DNA of 64,000 nucleotides from Escherichia coli (GTDB taxonomy: Bacteria > Pseudomonadota > Gammaproteobacteria > Enterobacterales > Enterobacteriaceae), in the NCBI RefSeq assembly GCF_044324785.1, contig NZ_CP172127.1. One strand, written 5' to 3'. Positions 20,403-24,057 of the stretch are shown here, piece after piece. Positions within the stretch are counted from its first letter, which is position 1, and each line of letters opens with the position of its first letter. The notes beneath the pieces are model-generated. The model saw only the letters and a list, made by a program, of their open reading frames with translations, searched no databases and had not been told where the DNA came from. A program made the position numbers and the translations under genes.

Positions 20403-21051
20403 ATTGGCTATCGCAACCAAAATGCGGACTCCCCTCTCTAAAGTGTCTGTCTTACCCGGTCTTACCGTAACGAAGAGGATACGCTCGTCGTTAGCTCCAC
20501 AAGCATTACCGGCGCAGCATTCATGAAGCCACAAACAGCCTAGTCAGCGTTCGGCAAAAAAGCTAAAAACAAACGGATATCTGTACTCAGCGCCCCTCTC
20601 CGGACTCACATCCATCGCTACACCGCAACAAATGCACCGCTACTTTCCCCAGTTTATGGCATCCTATCCATCAGGACTTTCTCATTTCACCCTTGAAACC
20701 AACAAAAAGCGTCACTCTCGGCAGTATGACTTCAACAGCCATGTAGCTGGGCGCTCCGCATCTCTACATGAGTCAGGCAGAGTATTAAGTTCGCGGGCAG
20801 GCAGCGGCAACACCACCAGGATAACGTACTTCCTCATCCTATCTTGCATAAAAGTGAATTTGACTTTTCTTCAAAAGTGGTCAAATCCGAGCGTCGTAGG
20901 GTACGTTTGCTGCGCATTATCAATAATGCATCCGTAGGACGTGAATTACGCGCGCATTATAGCTCTGGTCTGGAAGAATAAAAATGAAAAAGCATGACCA
21001 ATCCATCCAGCCAAAAAATACTGAAGTGGTCAACAAAAACTGGCCACCGAG

Positions 21052-21396
21052 TTAGAGTTTTTTCCAGTATCGATTTTCTGATTCGTTTGGGGGTAACCCA
21101 CCGTTATATTCGTGCGGTCTTAGTGCGCTGTAATATCCAACGATATAGTCCGTTATGGCGTGAGCTGCCTCGCTGAAGCTTACGTAACCCACCACCGGCA
21201 TCCATTCGTTCTTCAGACTCCTGAAGAAGCGTTCCATTGGGCTGTTATCCCAGCAGTTTCCGCGCCGGCTCATACTCTGCCTGATCTGGTATCGCCACAA
21301 TAACTGCTGGAACTGCCTGCTCGTATAATGACTGCCCTGTCGCTGTGGAACATCACCCCACCGGGCTTACCACGGGTTTCCTATGCCATTTCCAGC
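21052..21396 (-). pseudogene. IS3-family transposase OrfB C-terminal fragment
   Basis: Minus frame reads ...[52 protein letters not shown]...; an in-frame stop immediately upstream shows N-terminal truncation. Confidence 0.6.
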
Positions 21397-21538
21397 GCTT
21401 TCATGGTGAGCCTGCTGTCCGGCGAGAACGACATGGCCCAGCCCACTGGTTTTCTGTAAGCGTCGTCTGAGTACCGTCTGGTCCCGAATCCAGGATCCTG
21501 TAACTTAAGCACCCACTTATTTTGCAGGTGGACACCTC

Positions 21539-21691
21539 ATGCGCACCAAAGAACGACTCCCCCGGAAACGCTATTCTCCTGAATTTAAAATGGAACTGGT
21601 CAGGCTGGCCCTTGAACAAGATGTCACGAACGGTGCAATAGTGGTTCTTCCGCAACTTGGGTGGAAGAAAATGGATGAAACTTTCTGGTGA
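21539..21691 (+). pseudogene. IS3-family OrfA-like N-terminal fragment
   Basis: MRTKERLPRKRYSPEFKMELVRLALEQ... (SPEFK-type HTH start) ending at a stop after 50 codons; opposite orientation to the OrfB fragment. Confidence 0.4.
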
Positions 21692-21716
21692 ACAAGGATC
21701 TAAGCTGTTTTAAGTT

Positions 21717-23336
21717 ATGGGCAACGCAATGCACTCTCTTAAGACACTTCTACAGTTACCTTGCGGATGGCGATGCAGTCGACAAATTATTAGCTCTGAC
21801 GGTATCACCCTCCATCTCCACGGAAAACGCAAAACAGCACAATGTCCTGAATGCTCTAAGCGTAGCGACTCTGTTCATAGTTCTCGTCGGCGCCGGATAC
21901 AGCATCTACCCTGCTCCGGGCAGACGCTATGGCTTGTATTTTCCGTCCGCCACTGGTACTGCCGTAACCCTGTTTGTTCACGAAAAATTTTTGCCGAGTC
22001 GCTTGCTCCCTTCGCCGGTTCACACCAGCAGTCTTCACAGGCGTTACAAAATTTACAACGTCAACTGGGATTAATAGCCGGAGGTGAGGCTGGAAAACGG
22101 GCTGCAACGGCAGTGGGTCTCCGTTGCAGTGCAGATACTCTTCTTCGCAGGGTTATCAATACCCCGGGGACGAAACAGTCAGGCGCGCCTCATGTCGGTA
22201 TTGATGAGTGGGCGTGGCATCGGGGCCACCGTTACGGTAAGTTAATCGTCAATCTTGATACTCACCGTCCCCTCGTCCTGCTTCCCGGTCGTGATCAGCG
22301 TACGCTGGCGACCTGGTTCAGAAAATATCCGGAAATACAGGTTGTCTCGCGTGATCGCAGTGGAGTCTATGCAACAGCAGCACGTGAAGGTGCACCTCAG
22401 GCCAGACAGGTGGCCGATCGATGGCACCTGCTAAAAAATATTGGCGATGCGCTTGAACGAATGATGTACAGACATATACCTCTGATACGTCTTGTTGCCA
22501 GTGAGTTGTCACTAAAGAAATCACCTGAGCCAGAACTGTCTGTGCCTGCAGTATCGCTCCGTCGTCCGGAACGCCTTAAACAGCAAACCCGCAAAAAACG
22601 GCATCAGCGTTGGACAGAGGTTATGGCCCTGCATAACAAGGGATGTAGTTTCAGGGAAATATCCCGTATTACAGGCCTGTCGCGTGTGACAGTCAGTCGC
22701 TGGGTGCGTTCAGGAACATTCCCTGAAATGTCAACCCGACCTCCAAAGCGAGGGCTTCTGGACCCATGGAGGGAGTGGTTAAAAGAGCAACGAGAAAGCG
22801 GTAATTATAACGCCAGCCGGATATGGCGGGAAATGGTGGCCCGGGGGTTTACAGGCAGTGAAACCATCGTCAGGGATGCTGTTGCCAAATGGCGTAAAGG
22901 CTGGATCCCACCGGTTACTACTGCCGCCAGACTTCCTTCAGTGTCCCGGGTAAGCCGGTGGTTGATGCCCTGGAGAATAATCAGGGGGGAAGAAAATTAT
23001 GCTTCCCGATTTATTAGTCTGATGTGTGAAAAAGAACCGGAGCTGAAAATAGCGCAGCAACTGGTACTCGAGTTCTACCGTATTCTGAAAACCCAAAATA
23101 AATCACAGCTTAGCAGCTGGTTCACTCGAGTCCACGAAAGCGGCTCAGCAGAACTTCGGCGCGTGGCTGCGGGGATGGAAGCTGATGCTGCGGCTATATG
23201 TGAGGCAATCAGCAGTCGCTGGAGTAATGGTGTTGTCGAAGGTCATGTAAATCGCCTGAAGATGTTGAAACGCCAGATGTATGGTCGAGCCGGATTTGAA
23301 CTGCTCAGGCAGAGGGTCATGAGTCCACTGGCATGA
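21717..23336 (+). CDS. ISL3-family transposase (start codon uncertain)
   Basis: N-terminal zinc-finger-like CPECS...HLPCSG...C..C; C-terminal WSNGVVEGHVNRLKMLKRQMYGRAGFELLRQRV typical of ISL3 transposases. Confidence 0.6.
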   Translation: MGNAMHSLKTLLQLPCGWRCSRQIISSDGITLHLHGKRKTAQCPECSKRSDSVHSSRRRRIQHLPCSGQTLWLVFSVRHWYCRNPVCSRKIFAESLAPFAGSHQQSSQALQNLQRQLGLIAGGEAGKRAATAVGLRCSADTLLRRVINTPGTKQSGAPHVGIDEWAWHRGHRYGKLIVNLDTHRPLVLLPGRDQRTLATWFRKYPEIQVVSRDRSGVYATAAREGAPQARQVADRWHLLKNIGDALERMMYRHIPLIRLVASELSLKKSPEPELSVPAVSLRRPERLKQQTRKKRHQRWTEVMALHNKGCSFREISRITGLSRVTVSRWVRSGTFPEMSTRPPKRGLLDPWREWLKEQRESGNYNASRIWREMVARGFTGSETIVRDAVAKWRKGWIPPVTTAARLPSVSRVSRWLMPWRIIRGEENYASRFISLMCEKEPELKIAQQLVLEFYRILKTQNKSQLSSWFTRVHESGSAELRRVAAGMEADAAAICEAISSRWSNGVVEGHVNRLKMLKRQMYGRAGFELLRQRVMSPLA

Positions 23337-23340
23337 AAAT

Positions 23341-24057
23341 CTCCACCCAAGTTGCGGAAGAACCACTTTTCATCCGTCGTTGACACAAGAGGGCAGTATC
23401 GCTGCTCTGGCCCGTCAACATGACGTCAACGATAATCTGCTCTTTAAATGGATAAGGCTCTAGCAACGTGAAGGGCGGGCGGGTCTGTCGACCCCGAAAA
23501 AATGCATCGTCGCTTCCTACCCTGATACCCGTGCAACTTCAGGCGGAGCCTTCTCTCCCGGAATTCGAACCACTATCCTGTTCACCTCCCACTGCCTGCC
23601 ACATAAAATGTCGGGGCGGAGAAATAACGCTGACCTCTCCCTCAGTTGAGCTTATGAGCACTGTCCTGCGCGAACTGATGCGGGGGTCTGTATGATAAAT
23701 CTTCCCGCAGGCACAAAAATCTGGCTGGTTGCCGGTATCACCGATATGCGCAACGGCTTCAATGGTCTCGCCGCAAAGGTGCAGACAGCGTTGAAAGATG
23801 ACCCGATGTCCGGCCACGTCTTCATCTTCCGGGGCCGCAGCGGCAGTCAGGTCAAACTGCTGTGGTCCACCGGCGACGGACTGTGCCTGCTGACCAAAAG
23901 GCTGGAGCGTGGCCGCTTCGCCTGGCCGTCGACCCGCGATGGCAAAGTGTTCCTGATGCCGGCGCAGCTGGCGATGCTGATGGAAGGTATCGACTGGCGA
24001 CAGCCAAAGCGGTTACTGACGTCCCTGACATGTTGTAGCCCAGGTCTTCTTCGTTGA
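23341..24057 (+). mobile_element. IS66-family remnant (frameshifted orf1 plus tnpB/orf2; tnpC absent)
   Basis: Short orf1-like start MKISTQVAEEPLFIRR* followed out of frame by ...ALARQHDVNDNLLFKW...; then an intact orf2. No large DDE transposase gene follows. Confidence 0.65.
23692..24057 (+). CDS. IS66-family accessory protein TnpB (orf2)
   Basis: MINLPAGTKIWLVAGITDMRNGFNGLAAKVQTALKDDPMSGHVFIFRGRSGSQVKLLWSTGDGLCLLTKRLERGRFAWP matches the IS66 Orf2 family. Confidence 0.8.
   Translation: MINLPAGTKIWLVAGITDMRNGFNGLAAKVQTALKDDPMSGHVFIFRGRSGSQVKLLWSTGDGLCLLTKRLERGRFAWPSTRDGKVFLMPAQLAMLMEGIDWRQPKRLLTSLTCCSPGLLR

Follow-up and report, generated by a model that had tools for sequence, protein, structure and literature searches.

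A nest of four insertion sequence families at the cargo boundary of an Escherichia coli genomic island

The stretch of Escherichia coli DNA examined in this study (64,000 nt of contig NZ_CP172127.1, assembly GCF_044324785.1; hereafter the window, in which all positions are counted) carries, at 21022-24039 in a chromosomal genomic island, a cluster of four insertion sequence (IS) families nested one inside another: an IS911 remnant encloses an IS66-family element, which encloses a shell of IS100 termini, which in turn encloses an ISEc38-like core of the ISL3 family. The innermost, ISEc38-like element is structurally intact, and the other layers are decayed fragments. Taken together, the region is most probably an inherited and mostly inert scar in a CP4-like integrative island, the backbone of which underwent a series of transpositions and a single deletion here. 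The cluster is a real, well-resolved and ordinary IS nest in which every piece is a known IS, and it will not surprise a specialist. An initial annotation, made from the sequence alone, had placed three IS families back-to-back within 21000-24057; there are instead four, nested; the 22-bp IS100 termini around the ISL3 core had been missed, and the true limits are slightly narrower. Its broader view, that the cluster is no intact composite element but consists largely of decayed remains of successive insertions and deletions, agrees with the anatomy described below (Table 1).

The outermost layer is the IS3-family OrfB C-terminus that had been recognized on the minus strand. It begins at 21022 with the IS911 terminal repeat TGAAGTGGTCAACAAAAACTGGCC (the fragment start reads TGAAGTGGTCAAC) and is 97-98% identical to copies annotated as IS911 over its 434 bp, so that both the terminal repeat and an identity of at least 95% assign it to IS911. 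A complete IS911 has two ends and carries orfA and orfB with a programmed frameshift; here 434 of 1248 bp remain and orfB is frameshifted, with alignment to the complete 1248-bp IS911 in L024 revealing two 1-nt indels, an insertion at 21058 and a deletion at 21339. The A at 21050 and the deletion at 21339 are derived states relative to canonical IS911, and both are common to the copies in the window and in strains 2022H047 (L011) and BY63 (L023), to which we return below.

Inserted in IS911 is an IS66-family element of which nt 1-812 of 2437 are kept, the homology stopping at 24039, 1 nt past the old tnpB stop (24036-24038). Its left end, GTAAGCG, is identical to that of the uninterrupted 2437-bp copies L006-L008, and intact relatives of this length are flanked by 8-bp duplications (GTTAGGCC in L007, CTTTTCCA in L008). 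When 21622-23385 and one copy of CAAGA are excised, the junction reads CTTGAACAAGAGGGCAGT and tnpA is restored exactly as in the uninterrupted L006; the restored IS66 stretch then aligns in one piece, at 97.9% identity to L006 and about 91% to L007 and L008. What had been taken for an IS3 OrfA-like N-terminus on the plus strand (21539-21691) is therefore the first 28 codons of IS66 tnpA read into the inserted element, a confusion that arises because the Pfam family HTH_Tnp_1 covers both IS3 OrfA and IS66 TnpA. Base-by-base alignment with L006-L008 located three disabling lesions, two in tnpA (TGG to TAG at 23461-23463 and a 4-nt duplication within 23473-23483) and one in tnpB, where a 1-nt deletion after 24029 removes the stop at 24036-24038 and the open reading frame (ORF) continues to 24057. 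The absence of tnpC, as initially annotated, was confirmed: tnpB is present, but a homology comparison found neither tnpC nor the right terminal repeat, and the intact relatives carry DDE_Tnp_IS66. Membership in the IS66 family is thus given by the left repeat, tnpA and tnpB, with tnpC and the right repeat lacking. The Prokaryotic Genome Annotation Pipeline (PGAP) labels the 2437-bp relatives merely as 'IS66 family', with no specific IS name. Three RefSeq protein calls in this layer are artefacts of the nesting: the 50-aa 'hypothetical protein' WP_012311662.1 (21539-21691) consists of tnpA codons 1-28 with a continuation into the IS100 and ISEc38 ends, the 27-aa 'transposase' WP_072617239.1 (23380-23463) is a middle piece of tnpA, and the 121-aa TnpB (23692-24057) is a read-through into the primase remnant that adjoins the cluster.

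The unit that interrupts tnpA is 1764 bp long and consists of an ISL3 element between two IS100 termini. The initial annotation was right about the ISL3 family, since the transposase carries DDE_Tnp_ISL3 (Pfam, E=6.6e-35) and Zn_ribbon_ISL3, but the element does not merely abut IS66 orf1; it lies inside it. Likewise, the description of truncated or frameshifted ORFs applies to the IS911 and IS66 pieces and not to the ISL3 element, which is full length and encodes a 539-aa transposase with 96% amino acid identity to an ISEc38-family protein and no gaps or stops. At the nucleotide level the core is 96-97.7% identical to ISEc38 copies over its full length, its inner ends read GGTTCTTCC, and its zinc-ribbon DDE_Tnp_ISL3 transposase and terminal repeats of the form GG(C/T)TCTTCC identify it as ISL3/ISEc38. 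The flanking duplication is the 5-bp CAAGA, situated outside the IS100 termini, and a plasmid copy of the unit (L002) is likewise flanked by 5 bp (ACAAC). For comparison, the reference IS100 in BY63 (L023 21535-23488) is 1954 bp long, carries istA and istB, and is inserted in IS30H with a 5-bp duplication, TGAAT. The shell matches IS100 at 22 of 22 nt at both ends and shares the 5-bp duplication; istA and istB are absent, the interior being the ISL3 core. The ISL3 family generates 8-bp target duplications, a trait recorded in ISfinder, and no duplication of any length was found at the boundary of the ISL3 core. The complete identity of the IS100 termini together with the 5-bp duplication indicates that the element that entered tnpA had IS100 ends, the interior of which is now an ISL3 element.

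Table 1. Layers of the IS cluster and the adjoining backbone gene remnant (window positions).
Feature	Position	Strand	Details
IS911 (IS3 family) remnant	21022-21455	-	Last 434 of about 1248 bp; 3' part of orfB; rve_3 E=1.8e-11
IS66-family element, left part	21456-21621	+	Left terminal repeat GTAAGCGTCGTCTGAG... from 21456; tnpA codons 1-28 from 21539; CAAGA copy at 21617-21621
IS100 (IS21 family), left terminus	21622-21643	+	nt 1-22, TGTCACGAACGGTGCAATAGTG; identical to annotated 1954-bp IS100 in L023
ISEc38-like ISL3 core	21644-23363	+	Terminal repeats G(G)TTCTTCCGCAACTTGGGTGGA at both ends (inverted repeat); 539-aa transposase ORF at 21717-23336
IS100, right terminus	23364-23385	+	Last 22 nt, CACTTTTCATCCGTCGTTGACA; identical to IS100 nt 1933-1954 in L023
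IS66-family element, right part	23386-24039	+	Second CAAGA at 23386-23390; tnpA remainder; tnpB from 23692; TnpB_IS66 (PF05717) E=1e-37
Truncated primase-helicase gene (backbone)	24040-24926	-	About codons 1-298 of 786; AEP-TOTE (PF22548) E=5.5e-100

On its right the cluster is joined directly to a truncated primase-helicase gene. Microhomology at this joint amounts to no more than 1-3 nt, and no IS end is present there, which argues for a plain deletion. In addition to the loss of its ResIII/DEAD helicase half, the primase remnant has a frameshift near codon 24; intact 786-aa genes at the same backbone position in L009 and L010 have ResIII, DEAD and Helicase_C domains. Five steps would account for the arrangement now seen. 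An IS911 copy would have sat between the cargo and the primase-helicase gene, and a 2437-bp IS66-family element would have inserted into its orfB. An IS100-ended element, with an interior that is now ISEc38-like and lacks istA and istB, would then have entered codon 28 of IS66 tnpA with duplication of CAAGA. A deletion with almost no microhomology would have joined IS66 nt 812 to about codon 298 of the primase-helicase gene, at the expense of tnpC, the IS66 right end, the remaining ~814 bp of IS911 and the half of the gene that encodes the helicase; this deletion and the IS100-ended insertion could have occurred in either order. Point lesions in tnpA, tnpB, IS911 and the primase remnant would have come later. 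From these comparisons we infer the order of events, recombination as the mechanism that joined the cargo, and loss of primase function in the window lineage.

The scar is found well beyond the island in the window. Its ISL3/IS66 and IS66/primase junctions occur together in 46 of the 5426 E. coli genomes that were screened for junctions and precursor states. In the window the cluster lies, as had been proposed, between a polysaccharide operon and an integrase-proximal module (according to the annotation of the identical region of strain SMS-3-5, L001, in which window coordinates are L001 coordinates plus 499). To its left, the minus strand carries a galactan operon of the Klebsiella type (genes for the permease and ATPase of an ABC transporter, for a DUF4422 protein and for glycosyltransferases, and glf), and to its right follow a YagK/YfjJ (Gp2-like) gene, a 607-aa hypothetical gene, a helix-turn-helix (HTH) gene, a DUF3987 gene and a tyrosine integrase, then clpA. 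This right-hand gene set is a CP4-like integration module, in keeping with the CP4-like backbone named initially. A comparison with islands lacking the polysaccharide locus, which the initial annotation had called for, revealed the same scar junctions in two of them. The island of strain 2022H047 (L011), at thrW/proA, carries restriction-type cargo (a methyltransferase, a helicase and a GIY-YIG nuclease) and shares 21022-26022 with the window, with identical junctions and 98.8-100% identity per segment up to the Gp2-like gene; its similarity starts, and its synteny with the window breaks, exactly at the outer IS911 end (21022). The microcin H47 island of strain ChlosBP-23-1 (L012, serX), whose integrase lies beside dgcT, is shared from the left IS100 terminus rightwards. 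Across both islands the scar segments are 98-100% identical to those of the window. Another microcin H47 island, that of sequence type 131 (ST131; L013) beside clpA, has the ISL3 unit with a shorter primase remnant. Because the same junctions occur in islands without the galactan locus, the scar belongs to the inherited backbone, is older than the present galactan association and was not created upon arrival of the galactan locus. The locus also keeps accreting elements: strain LA3 has an extra IS3-family copy inside the tnpA remnant, and strain 162.2 has an IS1A with a flanking deletion at 24108.

The suggestion that the cluster marks a recombination seam between the galactan locus and the backbone stands in so far as the cluster is located at that seam; however, the scar predates the galactan link, and the seam is the IS911 fragment only. 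More precisely, it lies at or within that fragment and is narrower than the cluster. In BY63 the galactan locus occupies a different chromosomal place, where it is linked to its 930 bp of upstream sequence and to an IS911 of the same lineage; this galactan-linked IS911 continues without an IS66 element. The 434-bp IS911 fragment of the window is itself a mosaic, matching BY63 on the left (at 21058, 21130 and 21152-56) and L011 on the right (at 21280, 21308, 21360 and 21382), and the window and BY63, which diverge by about 0.3% over 10 kb, show 4 differences in the 176 nt right of 21280. This pattern is consistent with a homologous crossover located within IS911, at about 21157-21279. The scar probably acts as portable homology: the cargo on its left varies from island to island, the breakpoints coincide exactly with IS ends, and the galactan locus is attached via the IS911 fragment, homologous recombination of one IS911 copy with another being the most likely mechanism. 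Less probably, the galactan locus is instead the ancestral cargo of the island, the seam arose in other islands by later replacement, and the window was never a joining site. In favor of such a history, BY63 shows that the galactan locus has long been linked to this IS911 lineage, and the left-hand IS911 changes specific to L011 (21130 and a 5-nt deletion) are derived states; however, the jump in divergence between the window and BY63 fits an IS911 crossover in the window lineage, and the galactan locus of BY63 lies outside any island of this family.

Several points weigh against the history of serial insertion, deletion and IS911-mediated joining favored here. The precursor states (a complete IS66 element inside IS911, and IS911 beside an intact primase gene) are absent from the 5426 E. 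coli genomes, so that the order of events is a reconstruction; a scar without the ISL3 element was likewise not found in this collection. Within IS911, the sole derived state that the window shares with BY63 is a 1-nt indel in a T-run (21058), a type of change that is prone to recur. The swap could also have taken place in either direction, with the window or L011 as the recombinant. The third layer could be the product either of a whole IS100 that inserted and was then gutted by ISEc38 or of a ready-made chimera. Finally, the ISEc38-like copy gives no sign of recent movement or spread: copies at least 99% identical to it occur in only 46 records (counted by record), about the number of genomes with the locus.

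The relationship between the ISEc38-like core and its IS100 shell is the only mildly new point of this analysis, and it may be new. Each of the 13 further ISEc38 loci surveyed (L002-L005, L017-L022 and L027-L029) is bordered on one side or both by the outermost 22 nt of IS100, and all four end combinations occur. In L019 the core lies within an otherwise continuing IS100, 22-25 nt from the IS100 end, and in L020 it is preceded by 56 nt of IS100. Near-identical copies (L005 vs L003, 99.5%) differ in the direction in which the core lies within its shell, and the ISEc38/IS100 junctions adjoin GATCCAC repeats of IS100. This constant association suggests either targeting of IS100 ends or mobilization of a chimera. 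Taken further, it raises the tentative idea that ISEc38 in E. coli is an obligate lodger of IS100 and not a free-standing ISL3 element, a proposal we consider less likely to be true than false. It could take two forms: ISEc38 may insert site-specifically beside the GATCCAC repeats about 22 nt inside IS100 ends and then delete the IS100 interior, or a chimera with IS100 ends and an ISL3 interior may be moved in trans by the IS100 proteins IstA and IstB. Either version would explain the 5-bp duplications in the window and in L002 and, if true, would make the innermost layer a case of one IS family parasitizing the ends of another. In the papers searched, ISEc38, alone or together with IS100, appeared in mobile-element lists only, with neither its ends nor its association with IS100 ends described; a scan of viral contigs gave no further ISEc38 ends, and a scan of genome contigs gave a single chance match, in a planctomycete.

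A simpler account, that the 1764-bp unit is a plain ISEc38 with 44-bp terminal repeats that entered IS66 tnpA by means of its own ISL3 transposase, the likeness of its outer 22 bp to IS100 reflecting ancient capture or coincidence, is improbable. Nearly all full-length E. coli copies do align from nt 1 of the unit, and its 44-nt arms are 84% complementary. Nevertheless, its outer 22 nt are IS100 termini at 100% identity, its duplication is 5 bp, like that of IS100 in L023, and not the 8 bp of the ISL3 family, near-identical copies (L005 vs L003) have the core in opposite orientations within the shell, and further IS100 interior flanks the core in L019 and L020, showing that core and shell are separable. 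Because the outer 19-bp motifs are the two IS100 termini, three other readings of them were dropped: that they belong to a 44-bp ISL3 terminal repeat, that they are a pair of 'alleles' (X and Y), and that they point to an invertible core. ISEc38 also adjoins IS66-family genes (ISEc8 tnpC) in unrelated chromosomes and plasmids of enterohemorrhagic E. coli, an ISL3/IS66 neighborhood that recurs apart from the scar in the window (L005 3001-6264 and matches H223, H226, H249-H251 and H295).

With regard to present activity, the IS911 and IS66 pieces are immobile because each has one end and no transposase, and only the ISEc38-like core, judged from its sequence, looks able to move. That the cluster might be one functional composite transposon, or an assembly artefact, has nothing but the density of transposase genes in its favor and is already refuted by the anatomy: each IS family is present once within 21022-24039 and no two copies of the same IS flank a segment, the IS911 and IS66 elements have a single end each, tnpC, istA and istB are absent, and the same arrangement recurs in 41-46 independently assembled complete genomes, so that its probability is close to nil. 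Over the 8 kb from 18500 to 26500, identity is 99.8-100% across 41 complete E. coli genomes including SMS-3-5, which excludes an artefact of assembly, and the matches of the pieces to their families are far above chance level.

Additional features of the backbone and of the polysaccharide locus were recorded. The resemblance of the window to the backbones of L011, L012 and L013 stops abruptly at 25996-26022, about 350 bp upstream of the Gp2-like gene, beyond which the window follows an L010-type module (hypothetical, HTH, DUF3987 and integrase genes) and not a YfjI-type one; this position is a second mosaic boundary in the backbone. ARAGORN found zero tRNA genes across the 64-kb window, though the integrase adjoins clpA, the location of serW-type islands; the attachment site must be either outside the window or degenerate. 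A TOTE conflict system comprises TPR, OB, TBP and Effector components (definition quoted in PMC12458937). The primase remnant carries the AEP-TOTE primase domain; the annotation beside the intact L009 and L010 primase genes (annotation only, the neighbors being unprofiled) lists no TPR, OB/CSD or TBP partners, and the AEP-TOTE gene may be simply the primase-helicase of the island. On the cargo side, a JUMPstart/ops element (GGCGGTAGCGTG) lies at 20391-20427 on the minus strand, with about 300 nt between it and the first transporter gene of the downstream galactan operon, its match to Rfam RF01707 scoring 25.6 bits (E=0.025), under the gathering score of 35. The outer IS911 end is about 600 bp further upstream, and the native operon leader therefore seems intact. 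In BY63, IS1 and IS903B copies are inserted between the JUMPstart element and the first galactan gene (L023 15863-17634, equivalent to window 20346|20347) and should uncouple the operon from its leader. A scan of 20050-21700 for promoters and terminators returned fewer sites than shuffled sequence and thus gave no support for either a driving or a blocking effect of the IS cluster on the polysaccharide operon. A second IS cluster is present within the polysaccharide locus at window ~6590-12180 (L001 6094-11678), where an IS256 fragment, ISKpn26, two IS3-family copies and IS903B occur; the equivalent place in BY63 has IS903B only.

The value of the scar lies chiefly in its use as a base-exact marker of descent, linking islands at three integration sites that carry galactan, restriction-type and microcin H47 cargo. 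It points to a site where islands of this family swap cargo genes, the cargo being exchanged at IS ends, and indicates that the backbone primase-helicase gene is probably dead in the window lineage. It also allows annotations to be corrected: the 50-aa and 27-aa PGAP calls are tnpA fragments, the 121-aa tnpB product is a read-through, and the 'ISL3 element' has unannotated IS100 ends. The apparent dependence of ISEc38 on IS100 ends is the sole point that perhaps deserves a short follow-up.

Compared to known systems, each layer of the nest is recognizable. The ISEc38-like copy agrees with ISEc38 in length, terminal repeats and sequence (96-97.7% nucleotide and 96% amino acid identity), but its core sits between IS100 termini with no 8-bp duplication at the core boundary, and it groups in a clade of chromosomal copies that differs by 2-4% from the clade found on plasmids. 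The shell has both 22-bp termini and the 5-bp duplication of IS100 (IS21 family), while istA, istB and about 1910 bp of interior have been replaced by the ISL3 core. Like the ISEc8-like three-gene elements of the IS66 family, the second layer has the GTAAGCG left end and overlapping tnpA and tnpB, but its tnpC and right end are deleted and its tnpA is split and mutated. The island itself resembles a type that we take to be that of CP4-57, O157 OI-43 and SpLE1, found beside clpA (serW), serX and thrW, in having a tyrosine integrase, a DUF3987/YfjI-type gene, a small HTH regulator, a YagK/YfjJ (Gp2-like) gene, a primase-helicase and variable cargo alongside (backbone gene families as annotated by PGAP); it differs in its truncated primase-helicase gene and in having a galactan operon of the Klebsiella type as cargo. 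As a whole, the cluster shares with the nested IS clusters, or 'IS graveyards', at island cargo boundaries the insertion of IS into IS, one-ended remnants, deletion joints, later IS accretion and use in crossover. It differs from them in nothing of kind, being an unusually clean example in which four families are strictly nested and all junctions are mapped to the base.

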